Assembly: GCA_963845755.1 (NCBI GenBank)
Contig: CAWJTV010000044.1
Location: 32,001-96,000, forward strand
Length of the DNA stretch: 64,000 nt
Source: an uncultured Planctomycetota bacterium
Lineage (GTDB): Bacteria; Planctomycetota; Planctomycetia; Isosphaerales; Isosphaeraceae
Direction: 5' to 3'
Each line of letters opens with the position of its first letter. Positions within the stretch are counted from its first letter, which is position 1. Positions 33,871 to 46,202 of the stretch are shown here, in pieces. Below the pieces are notes generated by a model. It made no database searches, had not been told where the DNA came from, and saw only the letters and a list, made by a program, of their open reading frames with translations. Made by a program: the position numbers and the translations under genes.

Positions 33871-33913
33871 AAGCCACCTCTCGGACTCGAACCGAGGACC
33901 CCAGCTTTACGAA
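33871..33913. repeat. att site: 43-bp direct repeat of the 3' part of tRNA-Thr(CGT)
   Basis: aagccacctctcggactcgaaccgaggaccccagctttacgaa is identical to 46129-46171. Confidence 0.95.
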
Positions 33914-34099
33914 CGAAGCTCTTGCAACCGCTTCTATCGCCTTAACTTGATGTCGCTTCACAATTTACCGCCAACTCTCCCCGGTTTGCAAGTCCTGACG
34001 AACCGAAATGTGCAAGTGCCTGTGGTCACGGTAATTGCGAAAAAACCTCTTACGAACGTAGTCGGATTGGCCGGTAGTTTTCGGTAGTCGCCGCGCACG

Positions 34100-34132
34100 A
34101 AAAAACCCCGCGCCAGCGTACCGGGCGGGGTT
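34100..34132 (-). terminator. Rho-independent terminator closing the element's transcription unit
   Basis: Minus strand AACCCCGCCC-GGTACGCTG-GCGCGGGGTT followed by TTTT, downstream of the last element gene. Confidence 0.6.
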
Positions 34133-34178
34133 AGCAGAACACTCAGATTCGCGGCCTTGCGTCGGGATCGGGGAAGAC

Positions 34179-34592
34179 TCAAGCCATGGCCGGAGAACGC
34201 AAGGGCGCGGCGCCACGTCGCTCTATCAATAGGGATTTCATCCGCTCGGATCGGGCACTCCGCTCCACATCGGTGAGGACTGGACGGCGACGCTTCCGGG
34301 GTCTCAGGATTGCGGCGACGTCGCCGAGAAGGAACGGCGCGAACAGGACCCGGGCCTCGGTGTCACCCCGTTGGTGCACGTGGACGCCGGGGACTGAGAT
34401 CAGCTTGCCGACCATCTTCGGATTCCCGGTCCAGGCGGCCAGTGTGGTCGGTCCATGGACGGAGATGAACCCGTAACGGCATGGAATGCGATAGAGCCAG
34501 GGCCGAGACGACCGAGCCTGGTCGATCGTCGCGGTCTCATCGACGGTGATGCGGTATCCTCGCTCGGCAGCGAGGCGGTGAAGGTCGATCAT
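34179..34592 (-). CDS. Hypothetical element protein
   Basis: MIDLHRLAAERGYRI...IPCRYGFISVHG...HQRGDTEARVLF...RPRKRRR; GAGG before the ATG. Confidence 0.65.
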   Translation of the reverse strand: MIDLHRLAAERGYRITVDETATIDQARSSRPWLYRIPCRYGFISVHGPTTLAAWTGNPKMVGKLISVPGVHVHQRGDTEARVLFAPFLLGDVAAILRPRKRRRPVLTDVERSARSERMKSLLIERRGAAPLRSPAMA

Positions 34593-34648
34593 TCGGTCCT
34601 CTCGTAAATGTGGGGCTCCAGGCCCCGTGGAACGTAGCAAGGTCCCCT

Positions 34649-34897
34649 CTATCCAGCCGATGGCCAAGCGGGGCTCCCAGGGTCACCAGGGGCGTTGTAC
34701 AGGCATCCCCGCGGGCGCGGGCGCGGTGGCTTGGGTCCCTTCAGGATCTCGAGGAACCGAACCAGCTCGGTTTTTGGAACGTGAAGGGTTCCGCGCTGGT
34801 TCGGATGCAGGTGCAACCCCAACGGCCGGGTTACGCGCTTGAGATCCTCTTGGGACCATCCGGCATCCCGCATGGCAGTTTCGATCTCGGCATACAT
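34649..34897 (-). CDS. Small hypothetical element protein
   Basis: MYAEIETAMRDAGWSQEDL... with GGAG upstream; co-oriented with neighbours. Confidence 0.5.
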   Translation of the reverse strand: MYAEIETAMRDAGWSQEDLKRVTRPLGLHLHPNQRGTLHVPKTELVRFLEILKGPKPPRPRPRGCLYNAPGDPGSPAWPSAG

Positions 34898-34911
34898 GTG
34901 AATGTCTCCGT

Positions 34912-35181
34912 TCAGGGTCGAAGCAAGCGGGCATTTTGTTTGAGCCACCGCCGGGCCTGTGCCTTCTCGGTTTTCAGCCGCTTGGGAAGCTCGGCGTAAG
35001 TTCTCAGGAGTCGGAGGGCTGTCAGCGAATCAAGCCAAGGGCCTCCCTCGACGCGTGCAACCAGTTCAAGCTTCTCGAGCGGATCGCATGCCGGTCGCCT
35101 GCGATTCGCCGTGGCCAAACGATCGTAAAACCGGGCCGTGCGTGGCTGCTGTGCCATACGGTCTCCGTCTGTGGAGTCCAA
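34912..35181 (-). CDS. Small hypothetical element protein
   Basis: 89-aa ORF that fits the minus-strand gene packing. Confidence 0.4.
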   Translation of the reverse strand: MDSTDGDRMAQQPRTARFYDRLATANRRRPACDPLEKLELVARVEGGPWLDSLTALRLLRTYAELPKRLKTEKAQARRWLKQNARLLRP

Positions 35182-35302
35182 TGAACCATCGTTTCAGTGG
35201 AGTTGGCGTTGGCGTCGGCGAGTTGGCGCCGAAGACGCCGTTCGGGACCACGGTGTTCGGGACGAATTCGTTGAAGACGGCAGAAGCAGAGATCGCCATG
35301 GT

Positions 35303-35698
35303 TCATCTCCGATCCGGCTTGAAGCCGACTGTCTTGAGCAACCTCGCAACCATCTCGGCATCGGGTTCGGTCTCTGGGTCGCGTTCGATGCCGGCTCGGA
35401 GGTCGCGCGCGAAGTTGCGCATGGCCAGCGCGCTCGCTGGCGTGGCGTATGTCCATTTCTCGGGATGCCCCCTGTGGCGAGTCAGCTCGCCAGTCGTATT
35501 GCCGAATAGCTCGGCAACCACCAGCCAATAATGGGCCAGCGTGGCGCCGTGCTCGCCCCCTGGGTTGCCGAGTTGCCCCTCGATGTAGCGATCCAACTCG
35601 TCTTTCGGACCGTCGCGATCCGCTGGCTTCCACCCGCGGGGGATGAGCAGCCTCTCGGCAGTTTTAATCCTCGAACGAATCGACCTCTCCAGCCCCAT
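35303..35698 (-). CDS. Hypothetical element protein
   Basis: MGLERSIRSRIKTAERLL...; overlaps the end of the upstream TerS-like gene. Confidence 0.5.
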   Translation of the reverse strand: MGLERSIRSRIKTAERLLIPRGWKPADRDGPKDELDRYIEGQLGNPGGEHGATLAHYWLVVAELFGNTTGELTRHRGHPEKWTYATPASALAMRNFARDLRAGIERDPETEPDAEMVARLLKTVGFKPDRR

Positions 35699-36518
35699 GC
35701 TTCCCGCCTTTCTTCTGCGACTCGATGTAGGACTCAATCAGCGCCGTGCGGCGTTCCAACTCGGACCACGCCGAGACGGCCACCAGTTGGCTGAGGATCT
35801 CGCGAAGGGCACCAAGCTTGACCTGGTCGCTGGTCGATGACTTCGCCAGGTTGGCGAGCCCCGCGATGGCCCAATTTCCAAGTCGCCGTCAGTCGGCCGA
35901 TCATGGCGTCGGTCAACTCGCGGCGGTGTCTGGCAACCTGCGCCTTGAACTCAGGGGTTGACGCCCATTGGTACGCAGTCCGCTCTGATACTTGATCCTT
36001 GTGCTTGGCCGCCCACTCGCGGATGCCCTGGCCGCCGGCGACCGCCAACGCCAGCTCGTCTAGCCTGGATTCCCATGGAGGCAAAAACGGGGTAGGCTAC
36101 GACGCAATCAATAAACGAAACGAAATTCGTCGAAGTGGGGTTTCCCCTGGATTTCAAGGGGTTCTGGCCTGAAACGGCTCATCGAAACGCCACCCTCGAT
36201 GTTAGGCGATCCGTAAACTGAAAAAAGAGCATCCACGGCGTCAACCCAATGTATCCACTGTGGCGAATTCGACAGATTTATCCCAAAAACCCCTTATTTT
36301 CCAGGAGGAAGTGAGATTCGCTCGATGAACATATTATCCACGATGATCAAGTTAACTTAGTGGGAGACCCACCTTTAACTCTTGGAAGAGCATAACCAGT
36401 TCCGAGGCGAAAAGCTGGGAATCGCGGGCTTTTTTCCAACTATGCGGCAACAAATGTTAGCCCAATCTGCCTCCATGGGAATCCAGGCTAGGAGTGCGGG
36501 ATTCTTCTTCTTACGCAT
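35664..36518 (-). pseudogene. Terminase-small-subunit-like HTH gene interrupted by a MITE (plus frameshift near 35880)
   Basis: Removing the insertion gives GGAG-ATG MRKKKNPALLDELALAVAGGQGIREWAAKHKDQVSERTAYQWASTPEFKAQV..., an HTH followed by helical oligomerisation-like segments. The TerS call is inference. Confidence 0.65.
36062..36489. mobile_element. MITE (about 425 bp, non-autonomous, IS630-like target preference)
   Basis: 24-bp perfect inverted repeat ctagcctggattcccatggaggca (36060-36083 and 36468-36491) including a duplicated CTAG/TA target; AT-rich interior with no transposase ORF. Confidence 0.85.
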
Positions 36519-36533
36519 CGGAATGCTCCGTTC

Positions 36534-38079
36534 TTACCATGGCACCGTTGGCTTCGGCGCGCTGGGCATCGGGGGTGGAACTCCGCTGCCCTTCTGTTTC
36601 TTGATCACTTCGGTTTGGTGCTCAATCCGTTGGATCAACTCGCGGAGCAACTCGTCTGTAATTCCGCGACTCTGGCTCTTTGCGTTGTCAAAGGGCGTCG
36701 GACTCTCGCCCAATTCGGCGCGAGCGCGAGCGATCGCCTGGCGGTTGATCTGTTGGGTCTTCAGGTCATCCGAGAACGGCAAGATTCCCTTCGCGCGATC
36801 GAGCCAGGACGGGTGCTCGAAGGCGCCGCCTTTTATCAGTTCGATCTCTGCAATCTGGCGACGTCGAGCCACCGAGTCATTTCGTGCGCCCATCCGGGCC
36901 TCTTCCGCGGCCTGAGCCGCATCGAGCTTGGCCTGGCGAGCCGTCTCGGTTCCACGGTTCTCTTCGATGGTTGTCTTGAGAACGTCAGGGGTCGTCTCAT
37001 CGACGAGCTTCTTCCACTTCTCTAGCCCCCTGTCCCCCTGATCGACGAGCCCGCGCAGGGTGTTCTGGCCGATGGATTCCGGCGCAATCTCTTTCAGGAC
37101 CTTATCGAGATCCTCACCGTTCGCCTTCCGGCCTTCGAGGTTCTTCACGAGTCCGCGGAGCCGTTGGTATGGCGTGGCGTTGTGCTCGACGCCGTATTCC
37201 TTGCCCTTGCCCTCGATATCGAGTTCACGAGCTACCTGGATCGCGCGGAGAAGGTGGGTCCCTTCTTCCTCTGGCGCAATCTCCGGCATTCCGGCGAGGA
37301 GCGGGGCGGCTTCTTCGGCCGAAAACCCCTGAGCCTGGATTCGAGTCATCATCGGCAGAAGGTGCCCAACTTCGGCCGATGACGCTTCGAGGGTGGCAAA
37401 GACCTTGCCGGCCCTTGTCTTCATCTCGGTGGCGTTAGTCGGCCCTTTCTGCTGGGCCAGCAAGCCACCAGCGAAACCGGCCATTTCCTGCTGGGAAACG
37501 CCCTTCTGCTTGGCGTATTCCATAAGTGCCGAAGTGAACTCATTAGAGTCTTTCTGAGATAGTTTCGCGTTGGGTCCATCGCCGACGTACAACGATGCCT
37601 TGGAGAGATAGGCTTCGCTGAACTGCTTGGCTTCCTCTGGGGTGACGTTAGCTTTCTCGGCCCGATCGATCTCAGCCAGCGCAAAGGCGGTCGTGTTCTT
37701 CTTGCCGCTCAGGCTGGCGACGGCGTTCATGTCGGCGCGGAGCTTCTGGAAATGGTTCGCCATCTGTTCGACGCGAATGGAGGCTTCATTGAACTGTTCC
37801 ACGATGGCGCCGGCGGTTGCCTTGACCGCCGCAAGCCCGATCTGTGGCGCGTATCAGGTTCGCGACTTCGTTACTGACGCCCCTGGCGGCGGAGGCAACG
37901 CCATCCATGCCGCGCTTGGCCGTGTCTGTCCCTCCCTTGCTCGCGCTGCCGAAGTCCTGCATGCCCTTCGCGCCCTTGTGCGTCGCCTGATCCAAGGCTC
38001 GGCCGAAGGCATCGACGTTCCTGAGCGCCGACTTGTTTTCGAGCACGAGGCTAATCTTGAGTTGCTTACTTCCGTCCAT
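36534..38079 (-). CDS. Tape-measure-like protein (about 515 aa; frameshift near 37845)
   Basis: N-terminus MDGSKQLKISLVLENKSALRNVDAFGRALD, long Ala/Glu/Lys-rich helical body, located directly after a G/GT-type chaperone gene. Confidence 0.65.
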
Positions 38080-38087
38080 TTATTGCC

Positions 38088-38675
38088 TCAAAATATGCCT
38101 TCGCAGGCATCATTTTCGATAGCCATCCGGATGCTGTCCACCCAGTTGGTTCGCGGTGGGGTTCTGTCGTTGGCTTCCAGGATATCGACGACATCCACTA
38201 GGTCTTCGAGGAGCATGAGCGCTGGCAGCGACCCGTTCGCCATGGCGGTAATCTTCCGCCAGCGCATCAGCGTTTTGGGCCGGTTTTCCCCCGGACCAAA
38301 TTGGTTATCGACTCGACCATCTCTATTGACTGCTGGCTCTCATCGGGACTGCCGAACTCGAAAATGAACAGACTCTTCAAGTTCCTCGTCGCTTAGATCG
38401 TACTGACGTTCGAGCAGCATCGCCCCGAGGGTCAGGATACCGATGATAATGTCGTGGTTCGATGATGTATCGTTGGCGATCACATCGACCGCCTCATCGA
38501 ACTCCGGCCCGAACGTCGTGTTTTATGTGAGACCGACCGGGCGCCCATCGATGAACGTCGGATGGATCACGCCGACTGGCTTGGGGAAGTGCCATTCATT
38601 CCCGTCATGCAGTCGGATCGGATACGAGTGCTCGCTGAACGTAGGCAGTCTTCGGCTTTTCTCGTCGATTTGCAT
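38088..38675 (-). CDS. Tail assembly chaperone-like gene (gpG/gpGT type) with -1 slippery site; in-frame TAA at 38523 and indel near 38372
   Basis: MQIDEKSRR...GNEWHFPKP...FGPEFDE...LLERQYDLSDEEL...RGKTGPKR* (stop 38267). C CCA AAA at 38279-38273 opens a 63-aa -1 frame that ends 8 nt before the TMP ATG. Confidence 0.65.
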
Positions 38676-38859
38676 TGGGGTTCTCGAAGAGGAATCGGTG
38701 TGCGTCCTGGACAGCCGGCCGGGTCCGCTCTGCGAATCGGCACAGCTCGCTTGGACGGCTTCCGGATCTGCCTCGGTCGGTTGCTTGGGGTCCATGGGAG
38801 CCTTTCGGGGGGAGATGGGAGCGTCCGTGCTCCCGGGGCAAGCGTCACGTGCCCAGTTC

Positions 38860-39536
38860 TCAGGTGTAATGCTTGTAGAAATGATCGCGATTCGTGTGTA
38901 TCAGGACCTTCGTCGGCTGGCCGGGGGCGAGCAACGCCCACAGGGTGACCGTGTCGTCCTTGTTGCGCCGGCGATTGAGTCCCAGGGAGAAGCGATAGCG
39001 CTCGTCGGCCACCTGGGTATCAACGCTCGCCTGTGCATCCGCCACGCGGAACGCGTTGAACCTCGCCTTCAGCAGTCCAGACTTCTGCGCAGGGTTGCGG
39101 CATTCCGGGCGGCCTGGTCGGTATCCTGGCTGAACTCGCCGAAGTCGCCGCTGGTCATCCTCGTGACCCAGGTGCGAACTTCGTCGGGGGCCATCATCAA
39201 GATCCGGTTCCCGCCCTCTTTCGAGAATGTGACGTCGCTCTCGGCAACCGTGAACAGGCTCTTGGCATCGCCGATCACCGCGGTTGCGTTGAAGGGCTTC
39301 ACCGGGGCCGGGGCGCCATCGGGGGTCGCCATCACAGCCGCGGCGTAATCGCCCTCGAGTTGCTTTACCAGTCGGTCGGCTGCCAGGTTGTATCCGGCAT
39401 TCCGCAGGCTCGCGATTTCCATGTCGGCCGCAGTCGGGACCGAGGGAAGTGCGCCGATCTGCGAGGTCTCATGGAACGCGTCGGCGAACATTTGGGCCGG
39501 CGACTTGGGCTTGGAGAGTTGGGTTCCACTTGGCAA
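38860..39536 (-). CDS. Hypothetical element protein (frameshift near 39080)
   Basis: ORFs 39069- and 38860- join across a single-base shift (...RNAATLR / LLKARFNAFRVADAQ...). Confidence 0.5.
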
Positions 39537-39582
39537 TTTAAGGCTCGCTTTCTAATGTTGAGATGTCAATCTTTGGGGGTTC

Positions 39583-40323
39583 AGCGGATGACGATCACCT
39601 GCCGCTTGGCCGCTCCGCCGAGCCCGACGCTCTGGCCGAAGATGAACCCGGCTTCCTTGGACTGGCTTTGGATCGCCTGAAGGCGCTGGGCCATCTGATC
39701 CCAGGTCTCGGGCTTGACCTCGCGGGATGCGGCAGACCAGCTCCCGGCTGTGGCTGCGATCCCAGGCCGCTCGAGCGGACCTGGGTGAGATGCTGGCCGC
39801 CGAGACCGATGGCACCTTGCTGGCCAACCCGTCGCTCATATTCGGCCGCGATGGCCTCCAAGCTCCCGGGCCGCGGCTGTGCCGGCGGCATGACGAACTG
39901 ATCCCGGTTCACGGCCGTTTCGAGGCGAGCCCGAATGACTTGCGGCAAGAGAACCGGATCAACCTGTTGTAGGTCGCTCCAAGCGGTCGCCAGCGTCTGC
40001 GCGGCGCCCGGTCGGAGGTTCGTGCCGGCCGCTTCGATCGCGGCTCTCAGGTTGATCTCCGACGTCTTCATCGGGGCCGGCTTGGGCGCCGAGGCTGGAT
40101 CTTTCCAAAAGCCCGCGTAGTGCCCGCTTGACAGGTTGTTGACGACGAACTTGGAGACTTCTTCGGGCGTCTTGCCAGCGATCTGGCCAGCCCAGACGTG
40201 AGTCAAGGCCGGCGTAGCTCCATCAACCAGCGCGACCTGATAGGCGCCAGCGCCGTTGTGATGGCCTCGGCGGGAGTCGGAGGAGTCGGGGCCGGGGTTT
40301 CAGGTGCGGTCTCGGTGCTCAAG
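39583..40323 (-). CDS. Hypothetical element protein (probable frameshifts near 40245 and 39720)
   Basis: TTG start MSTETAPETPAPTPP..., core ORF 39595-, and a tail VKPETWDQMAQRL...QVIVIR* in a shifted frame. Confidence 0.45.
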
Positions 40324-40497
40324 GATGGTCTTCCTTTCGGGAAGCGGTTGTGGTTCGAACTCGGATGGGTTGTGCAACAGGATCGACTCGACGGGGCAGT
40401 CCGTGGTCAAGCACTCGTAGCGCGCCGCAGAACCGCGGCGAGTCCGGAAGCGGGCCGCTTGGCCGCATCCGGGGCATTCGATCGATGGGGCGGTCAT
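40300..40497 (-). CDS. Small zinc-ribbon-like protein
   Basis: CPGC...CLTTDC; ATGA overlap with the upstream gene. Confidence 0.5.
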   Translation of the reverse strand: MTAPSIECPGCGQAARFRTRRGSAARYECLTTDCPVESILLHNPSEFEPQPLPERKTILEHRDRT

Positions 40498-41072
40498 GCT
40501 TCCGTCTTGATCAGCCCCGCAACTTCGAGTTCGTTGAGTGCGGCGCGGACTTCAGAGACCTCCATCCCGCAGGCGCTGGCGATCCTGTCGGGGGGCGTCC
40601 AGGATTCGCCGCTGTAACGGTGGCAGTACCAACGGAGCTGAGAGACGACGATCTTCGCCGCGGCGCTGATCGAACTGTCCCGAAGGGTCTCGGCATACAG
40701 ACGAACGTGGCGAGTGTCGGAAGGCTCGGGGGCTTGGATCTTCAAGGCGTTCTCCGTCAGGGTGAAAACGGGAGCGAACGCGGCAGGTCTCTCAAACCTG
40801 CGCGCTCCCCGCGTGGGGCTCTCACCCCACCATTTCGGATTCTGCGATGAGTAATTCGAGGGATATGGGGCCGGAATCGACCCCAGAATGGCGAAAACGG
40901 GGCCAAACTGTGAATAGAACCATATCATTCTACGCACATGCCGCCATCTGCAAAACTCGAAGAGCTGGCGGACGATGCCGAGCCTGATTTCAAGGCATTC
41001 GGTGAATGCTAGGGTGCCCGGAAATATGCTAGTGGACGCTGATGGTCGCGGATCTCCGTGATTCGGAGGCAT
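40494..41072 (-). CDS. Winged helix-turn-helix protein
   Basis: C-terminal ISAAAKIVVSQLRWYC...SWTPPDRIASACGMEVSEVRAALNELEVAGLI; start uncertain. Confidence 0.55.
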   Translation of the reverse strand: MPPNHGDPRPSASTSIFPGTLAFTECLEIRLGIVRQLFEFCRWRHVRRMIWFYSQFGPVFAILGSIPAPYPSNYSSQNPKWWGESPTRGARRFERPAAFAPVFTLTENALKIQAPEPSDTRHVRLYAETLRDSSISAAAKIVVSQLRWYCHRYSGESWTPPDRIASACGMEVSEVRAALNELEVAGLIKTEA

Positions 41073-41139
41073 TTCCCGGCCCTCTGGCGCGTGGCGCGGC
41101 CGGTCAGGTCAAATCATACTGGCGATGGTCCGCGGAGGC

Positions 41140-42216
41140 TCAGACGGCCACGCTGGCGTGCGCTGATCGAAGGGAATCCGCAATAGGCTTGCACCATCGA
41201 TTCAGTTCTTCTCGCACGACGGCAGGGAACCTAGTCCAGCGATCTGGCCACATCGCTTCTCTGGAATGCTGGATAGCCGCATCGACGTCGCCGTGGGTCG
41301 CGTAATGATCACCCAGGATCTTCTTGAGCCTAGCTTTCTCAGTCGTCTCGTCTAACCCAAACAGCTTGAGTTGGATCTTGATCTCTTGCTGGACGTACGG
41401 GCTGTCTGGGGGTGCGACATGGGGCCTTGGCCGGTTATAGTTGAATGCGTCCGGACCACTGGCTTGAACACGCTCCCATGGAGCAAGCTGAACCATACCT
41501 TCCCGCTTCCAGCGTTCCAGAATGCGGAACACATATGATTGGTCGATCTTGCCGCAACCGACCGCTTCAGAGAAAGCCGCTCCGATGTTCGACGCTGGGA
41601 ATCCAGAGTGTCCCATTCGGCGCACCCACTTATCCCAGGAGTCATCTCCCAAGACGCGCCGGATGTGCTCGGCAGCCCTTTCGTATTCCGGTCCAAGAAC
41701 GTCTGTGGGAGGAGGTGGTCCCTCCTCCTCTCTTTTTCGTTCATCTGAGTTAAGACTTCTACTTTGGGTGACATGGGTGACACCCCCGGGGAGACACGGA
41801 TGACACCCCCCGGGTGACTCTGGTGTCACCCTCCCATCAGATGAGGGTGACTCTGGTGTCACCCTCTTTTGCCTCCCGGGAAACCGGAAGTGGTAACGAT
41901 AGCCGGTCCGGTTTCGGGGGTCGTCTGGATCAGGCTTGGCGACCTCAGCCCTGACTATCAGCCCATGACACCCTTCGCCGAGTTTCTTGAGGGCGCGCTG
42001 AATCGTCCGCTCGTTCAGGCGAGTCCGTTCTTCGATCTTCTTGATAGTCGTCCACGCAGAGGTTGCGCCGCGGGGGCAGTATCGCAGGAACGCTGCCAAG
42101 ACGACGTATTCAGTAGGGGTGAGTTTTCCCTCGCTCACAAGGTCGAGAGCGATTTCCGGAATGGGGTCGAATTTGTAAGCGAGCTTGTTTTGCTCGGCAT
42201 GCTCTTGATCTTTCAT
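41140..42216 (-). CDS. Phage-type replication initiator (N-terminal wHTH, iteron-bearing linker, DnaD-like C-terminal domain)
   Basis: LTPTEYVVL...AWTTIKKIEERTRLNERTIQRALKKL; linker repeats RVTPESP; AFSEAV...YVFRILERWKREG. Confidence 0.75.
   Translation of the reverse strand: MKDQEHAEQNKLAYKFDPIPEIALDLVSEGKLTPTEYVVLAAFLRYCPRGATSAWTTIKKIEERTRLNERTIQRALKKLGEGCHGLIVRAEVAKPDPDDPRNRTGYRYHFRFPGRQKRVTPESPSSDGRVTPESPGGCHPCLPGGVTHVTQSRSLNSDERKREEEGPPPPTDVLGPEYERAAEHIRRVLGDDSWDKWVRRMGHSGFPASNIGAAFSEAVGCGKIDQSYVFRILERWKREGMVQLAPWERVQASGPDAFNYNRPRPHVAPPDSPYVQQEIKIQLKLFGLDETTEKARLKKILGDHYATHGDVDAAIQHSREAMWPDRWTRFPAVVREELNRWCKPIADSLRSAHASVAV
41766..41866. repeat. Four 22-bp partly palindromic iterons (putative ori)
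   Basis: gggtgacatgggtgacaccccc (41766), gggagacacggatgacaccccc (41789), and gggtgactctggtgtcaccctc twice, identical (41812 and 41845). Confidence 0.75.
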
Positions 42217-42364
42217 GGCACTCGCGTATGATGTGAGAGAATGGCACTCGCGTTTGGCCCGGGATCGTCTGGCAACGATCGCCGGGCCTTTTGTCTTAAG
42301 GGGCTGGCCGTAGCCAGCGACCAGCCCCACCGGTCGGAGCGCCGGGACCGGGTGGTTCAGTGTT

Positions 42365-42571
42365 TCAACGGCCGGTGCCCTGAGTCGCGAAGTAGAATCT
42401 CTCGACCTCGCTCCGCGTGGCCATCCAGATCCCCCCGCGACGAAATGCCTTGATCTTGTCCCCGCAGACGCCGATGGTCCGCCATCGGTATCGCGTCGTC
42501 GAAGGGATGTCCGGCAGGAGCTCCGAAAGTCGCTCGAACCGCTCCGCGTCGCAATTCGCAGTGTTCGCCAT
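42365..42571 (-). CDS. DUF1580-like small DNA-binding (excisionase/AlpA-like) protein
   Basis: PSTTRYRWRTIGVCGDKIKAFRRGGIWMATRSEVERF. Confidence 0.65.
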   Translation of the reverse strand: MANTANCDAERFERLSELLPDIPSTTRYRWRTIGVCGDKIKAFRRGGIWMATRSEVERFYFATQGTGR

Positions 42572-42683
42572 GTCTGTTGCGCCCTGTTGGTTCGGCCGAT
42601 TCGAGTTGACCGGCGATGGGAAAAAAAACCGAATGATCCCTCCATTGCTATATAGCAGAAGGCTCCTCATGTCGGCTCATGGC

Positions 42684-43658
42684 TTATGTGATCTCAAGCC
42701 GGCGCTTCAGGACGGCGATACATCGGGCCAAGGTCCGCTTGACGGTCGCTTCCGAGACGCCGAATTCCCAGGCGACCTTGACGTGGATCTTGCCGCCTGC
42801 GCCATCGAATCCGAAGCGAGCCCCGAGGATCTCCCAGTCCTCCTCGGTCATGTCGCCGTCCTGGATCGCCTCACGGATCGCTCGACCGATCTCGGGCGGA
42901 ACGACATCGCTCAGCGAGGTTCGCGCGATAAGAGTGGGGCGACCACCAACCCGCTGTGCGGCGTTCAGGTGCTCGTCGGCGAGCAGGGCGGCCTTTGCGG
43001 CATTGATCGGTCGCCTGTTGTTCTTCTTCTCCCGGAACATCGCCAGGATCGCGTTGACGATATACTTTCGGGCCAGGTGCTCGAATGGGCCGACCGCAGG
43101 GTCGAAGACCGATGCAGCCCGGCAGAGGGCGTCGTAAGCTTCGGCTATCATGTCCTCGTCATCCAGTCCCCTTTCGCGGAATCGGCGACCCAGGGCGATG
43201 TTGTGGGCGAGCTCCAGGTGGGCGCCCACGAGGGCCTGTTGATCCCCGGTAAGCCTATGGAAACCACCCTCGAAACCCTCCTCGGTGGTCGTCTCGTCGC
43301 CCCACTGATCGTCGCCGGCCGGCTTCCAATCGGTCTGCTCTCTCCGCCACCGCCTCATGAGATCGGGCGATGCCAGCTCCTCATCCTTGTCGCGAGGCCA
43401 CGTGGGATCGAATCGGTATCGCCGGGCCAAGGAAATGAAGAGCATGCCGTCCGTGTCATCCTCTTCCGTCGCGCCGACGAGATGACGGACGAGCCAGTGT
43501 TCGCAGTCCCCGGGTCGGAATACGGTCCCCCCTTCGTCCAGCTCCCGTTGCAGTACGACGTGGTCTCGTTCCTCGGGCGGAAGAACGGGCGGTATCCGCT
43601 CGTATGCCTTGCCGGCGGTCGCCTCGCTGGGATACCTCGCTCCGACGCACTTGCACAT
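42684..43658 (-). CDS. Sigma-70 family sigma factor with N-terminal extension
   Basis: Region 2 EDMIAEAYDALCRAASVFDPAVGPFEHLARKYIVNAI and region 4 EILGARFG...VAWEFGVSEATVKRTLARCIAVLK. Confidence 0.75.
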   Translation of the reverse strand: MCKCVGARYPSEATAGKAYERIPPVLPPEERDHVVLQRELDEGGTVFRPGDCEHWLVRHLVGATEEDDTDGMLFISLARRYRFDPTWPRDKDEELASPDLMRRWRREQTDWKPAGDDQWGDETTTEEGFEGGFHRLTGDQQALVGAHLELAHNIALGRRFRERGLDDEDMIAEAYDALCRAASVFDPAVGPFEHLARKYIVNAILAMFREKKNNRRPINAAKAALLADEHLNAAQRVGGRPTLIARTSLSDVVPPEIGRAIREAIQDGDMTEEDWEILGARFGFDGAGGKIHVKVAWEFGVSEATVKRTLARCIAVLKRRLEIT

Positions 43659-43762
43659 GTTAGCCTCTAGGAGATGACCGCCGCGCGCAGCCCGATCGAG
43701 CCTGCGCGGCGGGGTAGAAGGAAAGGGCGTTGCATCACCATGAAGGGTCGTTGATGGTGACG

Positions 43763-44131
43763 CTACAGTCGAAGCGCGGAAATCTCGGCATCGACCCGCG
43801 CCAACTCGGCGCGCCGGGTCTTCGTCATGGGAGCCGGCTCGATTTCGGCCTCATCCTCGCCCAATGCGGCGGCCGTGAGGCGTCTCAGGAATCGCTCGAT
43901 GGCTTCCTCGGTCGTTTTCCAGCCGCCGGGAAACCGGATCGCTTCGAGCCGGATGAACTGATTGGGGCCAACGCGGACTCCGTGGACAATCCAGCGCGTC
44001 AGTGTCGCGGGATGCACTGGCCTATCGCCCCGAGATGGGCTGAAGAGCGCGGCCGCCTGAGAGAGATTGAGTTGTGCGCGCAAGTTTGACGTCTCCGTGC
44101 GTTGCGGTTTTTGACTCCTTCGCGTGATCAT
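43763..44131 (-). CDS. DUF1580 domain excisionase-like protein
   Basis: LSQAAALFSPSRGDRPVHPATLTRWIVHGV...RLEAIRFPGGWKTTEEAIERF. Confidence 0.8.
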   Translation of the reverse strand: MITRRSQKPQRTETSNLRAQLNLSQAAALFSPSRGDRPVHPATLTRWIVHGVRVGPNQFIRLEAIRFPGGWKTTEEAIERFLRRLTAAALGEDEAEIEPAPMTKTRRAELARVDAEISALRL

Positions 44132-44295
44132 TAGCCACACTTCGCGGGTACTGTTCCTCTGTCCCCACGGGGAGTCTAACACCTTTAAAACGCAATGGAA
44201 TAGTTGCATTCGCAGACCCGGTGTGTTCTCGAAAGATTCCGTGTTTCCACTGACAAGAAACGAGTAAGGTTTGCGAGGATGTGATTGAAAAATGA

Positions 44296-44318
44296 GAAAA
44301 CCCGGCCGGAGCCGGGTT
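44296..44318 (-). terminator. Rho-independent terminator
   Basis: Minus strand AACCCGGC-TCCG-GCCGGGTT followed by TTCTCATTTTT, just after the 44349 gene. Confidence 0.65.
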
Positions 44319-44348
44319 GGGTAGGAGGCGGGATCAAGATGTAGAATC

Positions 44349-44651
44349 CTACCTCTTGGCGGCCTTCTTGGAGCGGGGGGCCTTGGGCGCCGGAGCCTCG
44401 ACGGGCCGCGGATTCTCTCGCTTGAAGACATCGGCGGAGGGCTCGATCTTGATCGCAAAATTAAGATCTACATGTGGGTCCATTCCAGGGAACTCGTTCA
44501 GGCTGAACTCGATTTGTCCCGAGTCGGTCCTGACACATGCGACCATCCCGACGGCGCGGAACGTGTCCGTGAGTACCAGTTCAAGGGCATGCGTCATATC
44601 GGCGATGTTCGCGATCGAACCCGTGGCGAAAGGCGGAATCAGGGCCTTCAT
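44349..44651 (-). CDS. Hypothetical protein
   Basis: GGAGG RBS, 100-aa ORF, followed by a terminator. Confidence 0.6.
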   Translation of the reverse strand: MKALIPPFATGSIANIADMTHALELVLTDTFRAVGMVACVRTDSGQIEFSLNEFPGMDPHVDLNFAIKIEPSADVFKRENPRPVEAPAPKAPRSKKAAKR

Positions 44652-44850
44652 AGTGCTACCTCCCTCGGTGTGAGACTCGGCGTCAGGTCGAACATCGACC
44701 CGACAAAAGTAGTCTAGACCACGCGCCATATCTCTGTCAAGGGTGTAAATTTAAAAATTTTTTGATCACTTGATCGAATAATCGGTTGGCAAACTGATCA
44801 GTTTTTTTCCGTCTCCGGTTGGTTCTTCGGCTCGACGTGCCTCCGGCAAA

Positions 44851-46009
44851 TCAGCCGATCTTTTGGGCAATCTCGACGGCGAGATTCAGGTTTCTCTCGG
44901 CGTAAACCTGGGTGACGTCGGCTTTCGAGTGACCAAGTAGGACTTGAGCCGCTTCAAGTCCGTGCTCCCGGCGAACGCGGGTGGCGTAGGCATGCCTGAT
45001 TTGGTTCGGCCTGAAGACGGGGATTCCAGCCTTTCGGCATCCCGCTTCGATGGCGTGGGCGTAGGACTGACGCTCGTAGAAGAGACCGGGCTTCCGCTTC
45101 GGATTCCGACGTCGGCGGTTTCGCTGGGAAGGCTGGACTGGCGTCTTCCGGCGGGAGCGGATCTCGTCTCGAAATGCCGCCATGGACTCGGCTGGTGAAA
45201 AGATGGGGGCGTCGGGATCGGCCTTCAGGAGACCTTCCAGGAGTGCCCGTGCTCGCGGGCCAAGGGGGATGACACGATCCTTGTCGCGATGGAGATTCTT
45301 GTGCTGTCGCGGCGAGTAAATCCACGGATCAACGGTCCGGTCAATCTGACCAGTCGTGATCAGGCGAGCTTCTTGCGGTCGCATGCCCGTCAACCGTTGC
45401 AGCTCGATCATTCCTCGGATCGTCGGCGGGACATGCGGTAGGACAGCCTCGATATCGGCCTCGGGCACCGGCTTGACCTTTCTCGAGGGTTTCACGGCGT
45501 CACGGCCGACGCGGAGCCCGGCAACCGCCTCGATCCGTTGGAGCGAATCAGCCGGGAGCATCTCGTTCTCGACGCCCCAGGCCACCATACGGCGAATGAC
45601 GCCCATCCTGTCACGGATCGTCGTGATGGATAGGCCGCTCTCGATCATCTTGAGCCGGATCGCCTTGAACGCCACGCTGCCGAACTTGGCCGCTGGCGTG
45701 TTGCCGTAGAGTTCCCTGGCTGCCTTCAGGGCCAGCCGATATTTGTCATCGACCTTCACTATGGTCGAATGCAAATGTGAGTGGTAGCCAATAACCAGCT
45801 CTTTGACCAGGAGTTCGTCGGAGCGCCTTCTCGCGATCCGGCATGCGCCGCCCACGGGCCATCCACTCGGCGATGAGTCGATCGTATTCGGCCCGAGACT
45901 GGGGAGTGTTCCACTTTCCCAGGTAGAAATCTACGCCGTTCAGAGTGACCACGGCTTGGCCGCTGGCGCGGTGGCGTCGGTAGGACGGGATGAATGCTTG
46001 TTGCGACAT
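44851..46009 (-). CDS. Tyrosine recombinase/integrase (frameshift near 45830)
   Basis: N-terminal PSYRRHRASGQAVVTLNGVDFYLG; catalytic motifs TGMRPQE, HK, NQIRH, LLGHS and TQVY. Confidence 0.93.
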
Positions 46010-46129
46010 TGCATGCCTCATTGCTTGAGATCCTTCGGTAGTTCTACCGTTTGGAGCATCAAGATAAGGCTATTGTAGCAGGTCAAGGTGCATGTCGCAA
46101 ATCGCCAAGACGCTTCGAGTTGCGTCTTA

Positions 46130-46202
46130 AGCCACCTCTCGGACTCGAACCGAGGACCCCAGCTTTACGAAAGCTGTGCTCTACCGACTGAGCTAAGGTG
46201 GC
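46130..46202 (-). tRNA. tRNA-Thr(CGT), integration target
   Basis: GCCACCTTAGCTCAGTCGGTAGAGCACAGCTTTCGTAAAGCTGGGGTCCTCGGTTCGAGTCCGAGAGGTGGCT folds as a cloverleaf with anticodon CGT. Confidence 0.96.

Follow-up and report, generated by a model that had tools for sequence, protein, structure and literature searches.

An island of about 12.3 kb, inserted in tRNA-Thr(CGT) of a planctomycete genome and bounded by att sites at 33871..46171 of the 64,000-nt stretch of DNA analysed here (the window), has the architecture of a phage satellite. It carries an integrase, a sigma factor, an iteron-bearing replication initiator (Rep), a G/GT tail assembly chaperone (TAC), a tape measure protein (TMP) and a TerS-like gene. 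A damaged phage parasite is the most likely reading, since genes for integration and replication are joined to an operon of chaperone, TMP and TerS-like gene and there are no head genes. We tentatively prefer to see in it a helper-dependent satellite similar to PLEs and PICIs that is now damaged. In the order of the genes, the features are:

46129..46202, minus strand: tRNA-Thr(CGT) gene (ARAGORN 46130-46202); the 43 nt at its 3' end (46129-46171) form the proximal att copy
44851..46021, minus strand: tyrosine integrase in two frames, 46021-45746 and 45855-44851 (PF00589, 8e-13; phrog_1, 2e-26)
44349-44729, minus strand: orphan ORF, no family hit
43763-44458, minus strand: DUF1580-like HTH protein (21.6 bits, under the cut-off of 24.4)
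42684-43658, minus strand: sigma-70/ECF factor (phrog_351, 1e-9; TIGR02937, 46.2 bits, passing the cut-off of 42.9)
42365-42670, minus strand: small ORF, no hit
41140..42216, minus strand: Rep, DnaD/HTH_36 type (phrog_270, 1.2e-6; PF13730), with iterons inside the gene
40494-41072, minus strand: HTH_36/DprA winged-helix protein (PF17782, 2.2e-6; PF13730, 8.2e-6)
40300-40497, minus strand: small Zn-ribbon ORF (PF13408, weak, E = 0.012)
38860-39045 (61 aa), 39069-39536 (155 aa) and 39595-40206 (about 205 aa, probably frameshifted), minus strand: orphan ORFs, no family hits
38088..38675, minus strand: TAC G/GT, with slippery CCCAAAA at 38273-38279, G-frame stop at 38267-38269 and T extension to 38088
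36534..38079, minus strand: TMP gene, a 422-aa ORF (36534-37802) and a 97-aa N-terminal ORF (37786-38079) in a different frame
35664..36518, minus strand: TerS-like HTH gene, ATG at 36518, MITE after codon 10, one frameshift near 35870
36063..36488, no strand: MITE insertion of 426 bp, 21-nt TIR GCCTGGATTCCCATGGAGGCA, TA duplication at 36061-36062 and 36489-36490
34179-34667, 34649-34948, 34912-35181 and/or 35066-35299, and 35303-35737, minus strand: four or five small orphan ORFs, no family hit
34098..34132, minus strand: GC-rich hairpin with a U6 tract after it, resembling a terminator and closing the gene row (12-bp stem; the 66-nt piece folds at -24.9 kcal/mol)
33871..33913, no strand: distal att copy, an exact 43-nt repeat of the tRNA-Thr 3' part

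The att copies 33871-33913 and 46129-46171 are exact direct repeats in the repeat search, with 43/43 positions identical. The integrase gene adjoins the tRNA, and every credible ORF is read from the minus strand. An att-bounded unit in tRNA-Thr with genes in one direction and in this order had been described in the earlier note, and is borne out by the repeat and the ARAGORN call. The integrase, sigma factor, rep/ori and HTH assignments made there stand as well, supported by Pfam, PHROG and NCBIfam matches and by four 23-nt iterons found by repeat search at 41766-41867 within the Rep gene. The proposed Zn gene has its weak PF13408 match, and of two genes called 'xis-like' one is the DUF1580-like HTH protein below its cut-off and the second, 42365-42670, gave no hit. 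The claimed terminator is present as hairpin and U-tract, although its folding z-score of -0.9 is not significant and it does not appear in the list of a consensus terminator scan.

Rep is an orphan. Among 5.8 billion clustered proteins it has no close relative (best outside match E 2e-11, covering 28% of it), and our comparison set, 120 further genomes from the host's bacterial family (121 with the host), gives weak partial matches alone (E 1e-4 to 1e-3). The sigma factor has remote matches alone in these 120 genomes, the best at E 1.9e-7. Such isolation of integrase, sigma factor and Rep from relatives linked to phage genes would also fit a self-replicating, self-integrating genomic island in which TAC, TMP and TerS are captured passengers with no role in its spread, and paralogous integrases in the same genome lie beside tRNA-Arg (C7), tRNA-Ala (C17) and tRNA-Ile (C40) with unrelated cargo. 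We consider this quite unlikely: conjugation, mobilisation and defence genes were not found in the island with Pfam, PHROGs and PADLOC, the three captured genes are packed closely into one operon whose functions are exactly those that a satellite requires, and a sigma factor lies beside TAC-TMP in a second element (G029, below) too.

For the TAC, the arrangement of slip site, G stop and T extension is that of its homologues; CCCAAAA is found in 5/7 of those scanned, and the homologue on contig C11 of the same genome has the same layout of G, -1 shift and T, so that the earlier assignment as G/GT chaperone is upheld. The TMP-like identity of 36534-38079 is likewise borne out, by homologues and by a confident fold model (AF2, pLDDT 92.8, pTM 0.84). 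This model has 105 matches in BFVD at E ≤ 0.001; the best 50 of these include 29 rows with a description, 27 of which name a tape measure or minor tail protein, and 19/30 hits in the ESM Atlas are PF10145 clusters. The island protein itself has no Pfam or PHROG hit, and its 97-aa N-terminal ORF aligns weakly with the N-terminus of the TMP of G033 (E = 0.002). With about 500 aa versus 456-542 aa in relatives, the TMP is not short, contrary to the earlier note.

The TerS-like gene starts 15 nt past the TMP stop as it was before the MITE landed, which makes this an operon junction and not the joint of a random deletion. What the earlier note left as a gap after the TMP (36084-36534) is the 426-bp MITE that splits this gene. 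The flanks of the MITE share one reading frame, and the two halves are 46% and 44% identical to the G033 homologue P0067, a protein with a match to phrog_2538 (terminase small subunit, 6.5e-6) whose gene stands just upstream of one for a TerL-like protein. Through P0067 the claimed TerS-like gene now has tool-backed support; the island ORF by itself reaches phrog_2538 at E = 0.03 only. Homologues immediately precede TerL-like genes in G033:C5, in G031:C302 and on C11 of the same genome at about 111 kb. The role as a terminase subunit is nevertheless not secure, because members of the family are also found as an orphan gene in many copies, as many as 26 matches in a single genome, and the copies examined have no TerL nearby.

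The frameshift rate of the island matches the error rate of the assembly itself and does not exceed that of essential genes. Four frameshifts are documented by homology in 12.3 kb (int, G, TMP and TerS), with perhaps one or two more, and seven occur in about 19 kb of housekeeping genes of the same assembly (rpoB, rpoC, secA, gyrA, uvrA, valS); rpoB, rpoC, gyrA and secA are also split. A paralogue on C7 matches both integrase pieces in one frame. Long ORFs are open (Rep 358 aa, sigma factor 324 aa, TMP 422 aa), and the ORFs that can be judged by homology, about 5.8 kb, contain one stop. Three-frame reading and DNA place a frameshift near 38350 and an in-frame TAA at 38523-38525 in the G gene, the latter aligned with a conserved Tyr of 7 homologues. 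The TAA is probably real, since no in-frame stop occurs in the six housekeeping genes checked. The genome contains 20 copies of the MITE that reach 400 nt or more. The copy in TerS is 93% identical to the rest and 18 others average 99.0-99.4%, which places it outside the recent burst of copies that are 99-100% identical. As TerS is broken at codon 10 by the MITE and the chaperone has a conserved Tyr replaced by the TAA, the present copy of the island is probably impaired. The anatomy given in the earlier note is real; both lesions were missed there.

No ORF of the island has a Pfam or PHROG match to capsid, portal or TerL. That such genes might hide among the hypothetical ORFs is countered by their size, as the largest unassigned ORF has about 205 aa. 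The small ORFs within 34179..35737 have no match in Pfam, PHROGs, PADLOC or NCBIfam, and the 144-aa ORF among them shows no similarity to TerL. For the 155-aa ORF, a search of 1.84 billion representatives gave 2 weak partial matches and the Atlas none; its single-sequence structure model is unusable (pLDDT 44.8).

Relatives of TAC-TMP occur in a family-wide virion cluster, with one copy in the same genome, and in other tRNA-borne elements. As to whether homologous loci always sit in full prophages, a point the earlier note had raised, most lie in full virion modules and three in compact or mosaic elements. The closest, in G029:C18 (50-66% identity) and G033:C5 (54-57%), belong to tRNA-borne elements with TerL, a primase-helicase and, in G029, a portal. 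That these elements are larger and carry TerL means that the island could derive from a phage. It would then be the rearranged, decaying and no longer mobile remnant of a small temperate phage of their kind, having lost head, tube and tail-tip genes, which we regard as possible yet rather unlikely. The G029 element shares the island's 43-nt att core, likewise in tRNA-Thr(CGT), and has a sigma factor beside TAC-TMP; that of G033 shares integrase (38-47%) and TerS (42-46%) with the island, and its second att copy was not found within about 41 kb. In the sister species G046, only half of a 74%-identical integrase lies at tRNA-Thr(CGT), so elements at this site do decay, and the MITE in TerS, from outside the recent burst, and the TAA in G would be damage too. 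A search for elements of the same order, proposed in the earlier note, gave no second island of this build in the 120 family genomes; this single instance favours a remnant and counts against the satellite reading. What speaks against a remnant is gene order. TerS lies downstream of TMP in the island, whereas it is upstream of TerL and the tail genes in G033 and G031, and deletions alone cannot produce this order. Moreover, a search of the module borders for truncated structural genes gave no fragment of a baseplate, tube, capsid, portal or TerL gene, the two att sites do not differ, frameshifts are no denser than in essential genes, and there is just the one stop.

The resident candidate helper is the C11 virion cluster, which has a portal, a scaffold, an SU10-type capsid and a full tail module downstream of TAC-TMP, and no recognisable intact TerL. 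Its TAC-TMP is the sole other member of this family in the genome, with 47% identity to the island in the T part and 28% in the TMP. Its 730-aa tail protein occurs in 68/121 family genomes with identity that tracks genera. The island could accordingly be a parasite or accessory of an inherited GTA-like virion cluster and not of an infectious phage, giving C11 particles packaging specificity and a tail core. This is very improbable in our view, as the TMP identity is so low, TerL is missing from the island too, same-genus G046 has no match to the 730-aa protein, and C11 particles are putative.

The island integrates at the 3' end of tRNA-Thr(CGT) through its own tyrosine integrase, has an iteron-type replicon and a sigma factor of its own, and contributes one late operon, TAC(G/GT)-TMP-TerS, and no other virion parts. 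As a satellite, it would excise and replicate upon induction or upon infection by a helper with a related long tail. The TerS-like protein may divert the helper's large terminase onto island DNA, and chaperone and TMP may enter otherwise helper-made tails, as with the Vibrio cholerae PLEs and ICP1. Of the tail-step satellite proposed in the earlier note, the satellite-like build and the TAC, TMP and TerS identities hold; the short TMP does not.

TMP-carrying satellites are already in print, among PLEs and EPIPs. Like PICIs and SaPIs as modelled for SatelliteFinder in PMC10085698, the island is near 10-15 kb and att-bounded, with a terminal integrase, a regulator, a replication module with origin and, towards the far end, terS with accessory genes after it; capsid and lysis genes are absent. 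TerS after the tail genes reverses the phage order yet resembles this PICI position, which favours the satellite reading. The island differs in its tail genes, a 'forbidden' component of that model, in an initiator in place of a primase-replicase, in a regulator consisting of the sub-cut-off DUF1580-like HTH protein and the sigma factor, and in that no capsid-morphogenesis gene was found. The word 'Planctomycet' is absent from the main text of that paper. Putative tmp genes are listed for cf-PICIs and PLE-like elements (PMC12987554, Extended Data Fig. 10); cf-PICIs resemble the island as satellite-class islands with a predicted tmp, but encode a full capsid and packaging set that it lacks. EPIPs of Mycolicibacterium aichiense (bioRxiv 2025, PMC12822802) are described as carrying, like the island, TerS and a tape measure protein without other tail proteins; their serine integrase, scaffold, major capsid, adaptor and stopper have no counterpart in it. 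The PLEs, satellites of phage ICP1, have a gene for a baseplate hub as well as TAC and TMP, and the tails they give rise to are chimeric, with PLE TAC and TMP in place of those of the phage (Nature 2026, PMC12987554). BhuB, Rta and other PLE genes were not recognised among the family matches of the island. It also differs from PLEs in its tRNA-sited tyrosine integrase, DnaD-type Rep, sigma factor and TerS-like gene, and in having a planctomycete host. Both are capsid-less integrated islands with their own TAC and TMP, distant from those of the (candidate) helper: PLE11 shares roughly 20% identity with ICP1, according to PMC12987554, and the 28-47% between island and C11 lies above this, in favour of the satellite reading. 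For satellite-encoded TAC and TMP, the PLEs of that report are a direct experimental precedent.

The island spans 12,301 bp and is bounded by an exact 43-nt direct repeat (33871-33913 and 46129-46171), the right copy of which forms the 3' portion of an intact tRNA-Thr(CGT) gene on the minus strand (46130-46202). By third-position G+C and ORF reading, every credible island gene lies on the minus strand. With 0.55-0.64 per kb, the G+C content is equal to or slightly lower than that of the flanks (0.62-0.66). The tRNA is adjoined by a tyrosine integrase (PF00589, E = 8.4e-13; phrog_1, E = 2.2e-26), which lies in two frames, in keeping with the error rate of the assembly. The island further encodes a DUF1580-like HTH protein (21.6 bits, under the cut-off of 24.4), a sigma-70/ECF factor (phrog_351, E = 1.1e-9; TIGR02937, 46.2 against a cut-off of 42.9), an HTH_36/DprA-WH protein, a weakly matching Zn ribbon and a DnaD/HTH_36-type replication initiator, Rep (phrog_270, E = 1.2e-6; the DnaD/DnaB_2 match is weak). 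Four 23-nt iterons are located inside the Rep gene (41766-41867). Rep has a single partial match of 38% within the family, in the same genome, and the best outside match from the protein collection (E = 2e-11) covers 28% of Rep. For the sigma factor, the family genomes gave none but remote ECF matches. That the island is an autonomous element in which the phage genes are passengers appears improbable.

Family scans of the island ORFs gave no match at E <= 0.1 to AlpA, HTH_17 or MerR, and none to capsid, portal, large terminase, tube, baseplate, lysis or defence families. Neither a primase or helicase domain nor a capsid-morphogenesis gene was found among these ORFs with Pfam and PHROGs, and PADLOC detected no defence gene in the island, a single 14.6-bit HTH match being disregarded. 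The largest ORF without assignment encodes ~205 aa. For a 155-aa ORF, the Atlas held no match and 1.84 billion representatives yielded two weak partial ones; its single-sequence AF2 model has a pLDDT of 44.8.

Four island genes continue in a second frame: integrase, chaperone, tape measure and the TerS-like gene. The assembly of the source genome, G000, is 87.9% complete in 49 contigs, and its essential genes behave in the same manner. rpoB (C34:79366-83015), secA (C25:256019-259175) and uvrA (C33) are each found in two frames, rpoC (C34:567489-571586) and gyrA (C11:955025-957483) in three frame segments, and valS is unbroken. This gives 7 shifts in ~19 kb of control genes, or ~1 per 2.7 kb, compared to 4 homology-documented shifts, and perhaps 1-2 more, in the 12.3 kb of the island. 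With essential genes broken about as often, the island frameshifts are no evidence of decay and were rejected as such a sign. Essential genes in so many frames indicate that the assembly has many indel errors, and claims based on frameshifts in this genome need a control. In-frame stops are absent from all six control genes.

G000 contains one other relative of the tail assembly chaperone (TAC) and tape measure protein (TMP) pair, on contig C11. There, the 136-aa chaperone ORF ends with GGC CCA AAA and a stop follows eight codons on, while the -1 frame is open for ~60 codons up to the start of the next gene. Read from sequence, the arrangement is that of a classical G/GT gene pair with C CCA AAA as its heptamer. 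The same arrangement is found in the island, with two overlapping ORFs and a heptamer for a predicted -1 shift upstream of the TMP gene. The slippery CCCAAAA of the island lies at 38273-38279, the G-frame stop follows two codons later, and the T extension is 47% identical to that of C11. The heptamer is present in five of seven aligned homologues and missing from the copies in locus L025 and genome G033. At 38523-38525, an in-frame TAA aligns with a tyrosine kept in all homologues but the G033 copy (6/7). As the control genes showed no in-frame stops, this TAA is probably real, and it would inactivate both G and GT.

The TMP gene starts 8 nt past the GT stop. Its 422-aa ORF (36534-37802) has no Pfam or PHROG match at E <= 0.1. 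The family comprises 56 proteins in a collection of 5.8 billion clusters; none of the 56 carries a Pfam domain, and their source names, where given, are the uninformative 'hypothetical protein'. Two of six family members match PF20155 weakly (E = 0.04), and a piece of the relative in G033 matches phrog_4211 (2.4e-4). In the Atlas, PF10145 clusters account for 19 of the 30 feature matches, with a top score of 0.94. An AF2 model from 38 sequences is all-helical, with a pLDDT of 92.8 and a pTM of 0.84. Foldseek returned 105 BFVD matches for this model at E <= 0.001, with TMq up to 0.68. Among the best 50 of these 105, 29 are described, 27 as tape measure or minor tail proteins and 2 as uncharacterised. 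In the PDB, the model found nothing at E <= 0.001, and a profile of six homologues gave a chance-level match alone (E = 0.26) to PDB sequences. The BFVD fold matches, the PF10145 clusters and the position after GT bear out the similarity to a tape measure that had been noted for 36534-38079, and we assign the product of the 422-aa ORF, as read from sequence and model, as the tape measure protein. Upstream, the product of a 97-aa ORF (37786-38079) has a weak alignment to the N-terminus of the G033 TMP (E = 0.002) and none to the TMPs of locus L015 or genome G029. The full island TMP would have ~500 aa compared to 456-542 aa in intact relatives, and is not the short tape measure proposed in the earlier note.

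Next to the TMP gene, a low-G+C 'gap' (36054-36499) matches ~20 places in G000. It contains the following element:

36063-36488, 426 bp: MITE with 21-nt terminal inverted repeats and a TA duplication

With the flanks of the MITE translated separately, the TerS-like gene begins at ATG 36518, 15 nt beyond the TMP stop. It runs for ten codons (MRKKKNPALL), is interrupted by the MITE and continues in the same frame with DELALAV. Since both flanks share a frame, the TerS-like gene is the next cistron after TMP, hit by the MITE at its tenth codon. The two gene halves, which lie in two frames, match an intact 133-aa G033 protein, P0067, with 46% and 44% identity. P0067 matches phrog_2538 (terminase small subunit) with 6.5e-6, and a 457-aa TerL-like gene starts within its coding sequence; the island ORF itself matches this family weakly (E = 0.03). 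The pairing of TerS-like and TerL-like genes is also found in G031:C302 and in the source genome on C11 at ~109-111.7 kb. The TerS-like family has matches in 38 of the 121 genomes, and a single genome can have as many as 26. The copies in G037 (contigs C36, C25 and C30; loci L037-L039) lie in ~1.4-kb repeats that are 87-95% alike and lack TerL, and the family is possibly a proliferating TerS-derived unit. In G044 (contig C13), a 43-aa C-terminal TerL remnant follows one TerS-like copy. From these sequence relationships, the identity of the island gene as TerS is probable, not certain.

Compared to the other 19 copies in G000, the MITE of the island shows 93% identity; 18 of the 19 average 99.0-99.4% identity to the rest and one 96.7%. 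The eighteen near-identical sequences (99-100%) point to a recent burst, and the lower identity of the island copy places its insertion outside this burst. Copies elsewhere in the genome include C4:48751-49176, C41:15276 and C11:979787-980212. The MITE family is absent from the other 120 family genomes, save for matches of 68-69% in G006. Import from another host is unsupported, the family being confined to G000 among the 121 genomes.

TMP relatives are found in 13 of 121 family genomes, the majority within a conserved virion cluster. The 730-aa tail protein of this cluster is present in 68 of 121 genomes, and its identity tracks genera. The cluster on C11 of the source genome (~142-167 kb) encodes portal, scaffold, SU10-type capsid and a full tail module; a second copy in G091 runs from TerL, portal, scaffold and capsid through G/GT and TMP to tail genes. 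The TMP ORF of the C11 cluster (L002:3407-4633 = G000:C11:161407-162633) stops after 314 aa, and its alignment to a 431-aa relative continues in the same frame past the stop, which points to an in-frame stop or else to an error of the assembly. A weak trace at 142240-142563 is all that is seen of the cluster's own TerL. Some 31 kb upstream of the cluster lies a TerS-like and TerL pair (G000:C11:108988-111663; L043), whose TerL is 60-77% identical to those of G031 and G033. It is very improbable that the island is a parasite of this inherited virion cluster.

The closest relatives of the island TAC and TMP are located outside the virion cluster, in G029:C18 (50-66% identity) and G033:C5 (54-57%). 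In G029, 31.4 kb (C18:384464-415965; L031/L020/L032) lie between tRNA-Thr(CGT) and a copy of the 43-nt att with two mismatches. The att core is that of the island, and the two mismatches are compensatory T-stem changes. This stretch carries TerL, portal, four small ORFs, a sigma factor, TAC and TMP in this order, together with a primase-helicase, a serine recombinase and a partial tyrosine integrase; no capsid gene was recognised in it, and it is probably composite. The G033 locus (C5:466700-485000; L029/L019) adjoins tRNA-Ala, which is followed by an integrase 38-47% identical to that of the island, a D5-type primase, HTH_17, TerS, TerL, three ORFs, TAC, TMP, LamG and a GDSL lipase. We read this gene content as a compact phage-like element; neither a portal nor a capsid was recognised in it, and a search for a second att copy (attR) within ~41 kb gave none. 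Neither locus resembles the island in its build.

The earlier note had called for other att-bounded islands with the same gene order. None was found in the 120 other family genomes, nor was the reduced gene set seen to recur there as a family. A metagenome scan with a single-protein TMP query matched 99 pattern stretches, none of which was confirmed as a relative. In G046, a sister species of the same genus, tRNA-Thr(CGT) is followed only by residues 15-179 of a 74%-identical integrase. Comparison of this site as an empty site is affected by broken synteny, with right flank and tRNA on separate contigs, and the left flank of the island gave no match. Paralogous integrases with 35-42% identity lie in G000 beside tRNA-Arg (C7:12354-13556), tRNA-Ala (C17:54525-55664) and tRNA-Ile (C40:42555-43333) and, by their sequence and location, mark a family of tRNA-targeting islands with other cargo. 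C40 was rejected as a sister island: there, tRNA-Ile separates the int/DUF1580 matches from the Rep-like ones, and the two groups are on different strands.

We tentatively favour a helper-dependent satellite, now impaired, at slightly less than an even chance. Of the satellite gene set claimed earlier, integration, regulation, replication and the tight TAC-TMP-TerS operon with no other virion part stand, while TerS and G are damaged. A rearranged prophage remnant is the less probable reading. Decay or lost function would agree with the MITE insertion into TerS, the TAA in G, the failure to find a sister island and the phage-like character of the closest TAC-TMP relatives. However, TerS comes after the tail genes, with an operon-like junction of 15 nt, whereas G033 and G031 have the opposite order; none of the borders shows a truncated structural gene, and nothing but frameshifts at the error rate breaks the long ORFs. 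All three observations count against a plain deletion remnant. We conclude that the island is real and well-bounded and a reasonable candidate for a satellite of a recently described functional kind.

As a satellite, the island would contribute its chaperone and tape measure to particles made by another element. It may even be the first PLE-style 'chimeric tail' satellite outside Proteobacteria, with the vertically inherited GTA-like virion cluster of the family rather than an infectious phage as provider, but this is a long shot. With such a provider, the island would be a parasite of a domesticated particle system. More generally, a satellite here would imply that the tail-substitution strategy of Vibrio PLEs is also present in the distant phylum Planctomycetota, the host phylum indicated by the DUF1580 match, and that TAC-TMP-TerS operons recur as a minimal 'hijacking kit'. 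In annotation, tail genes would be no ground for excluding satellites. The value of the finding is limited by a single, visibly damaged copy of a candidate satellite in an error-rich assembly. Among the papers listed by literature searches, none describes a satellite in Planctomycetota in its title or abstract opening, and the main text of the SatelliteFinder paper does not mention the phylum (PMC10085698).

The PICI definition in that paper lists an integrase, a regulator homologous to AlpA, MerR or Stl, a primase-replicase, a capsid-morphogenesis gene and terS, and forbids tail and holin genes (PMC10085698). The PF00589/phrog_1 integrase of the island corresponds to the first of these. Its candidate regulator is the sub-threshold DUF1580-like HTH protein (21.6 against 24.4 bits), and in place of a primase or helicase domain it has the replication initiator with iterons. 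The capsid-morphogenesis gene is missing, as it is in SaPI-type PICIs. The small-terminase candidate is weak (E = 0.03) and split by the MITE; its homologue P0067 reaches 6.5e-6, and three homologues precede TerL-like genes. The TAC and TMP genes run against the rule on tail genes, and the island therefore falls outside the PICI definition. TerS together with TMP has been reported for Mycolicibacterium EPIPs (PMC12822802), and the legend to Extended Data Fig. 10 of a 2026 study on PLEs gives putative tmp genes for PLE-like elements and cf-PICIs (PMC12987554). According to this study, PLEs encode TAC, TMP and a baseplate hub and build chimeric tails (PMC12987554). The island likewise encodes its own TAC and TMP; a match to the baseplate hub (BhuB) is missing from it, its unassigned ORFs being <= ~205 aa. 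By analogy, the island would be more like PLEs than PICIs in its working.
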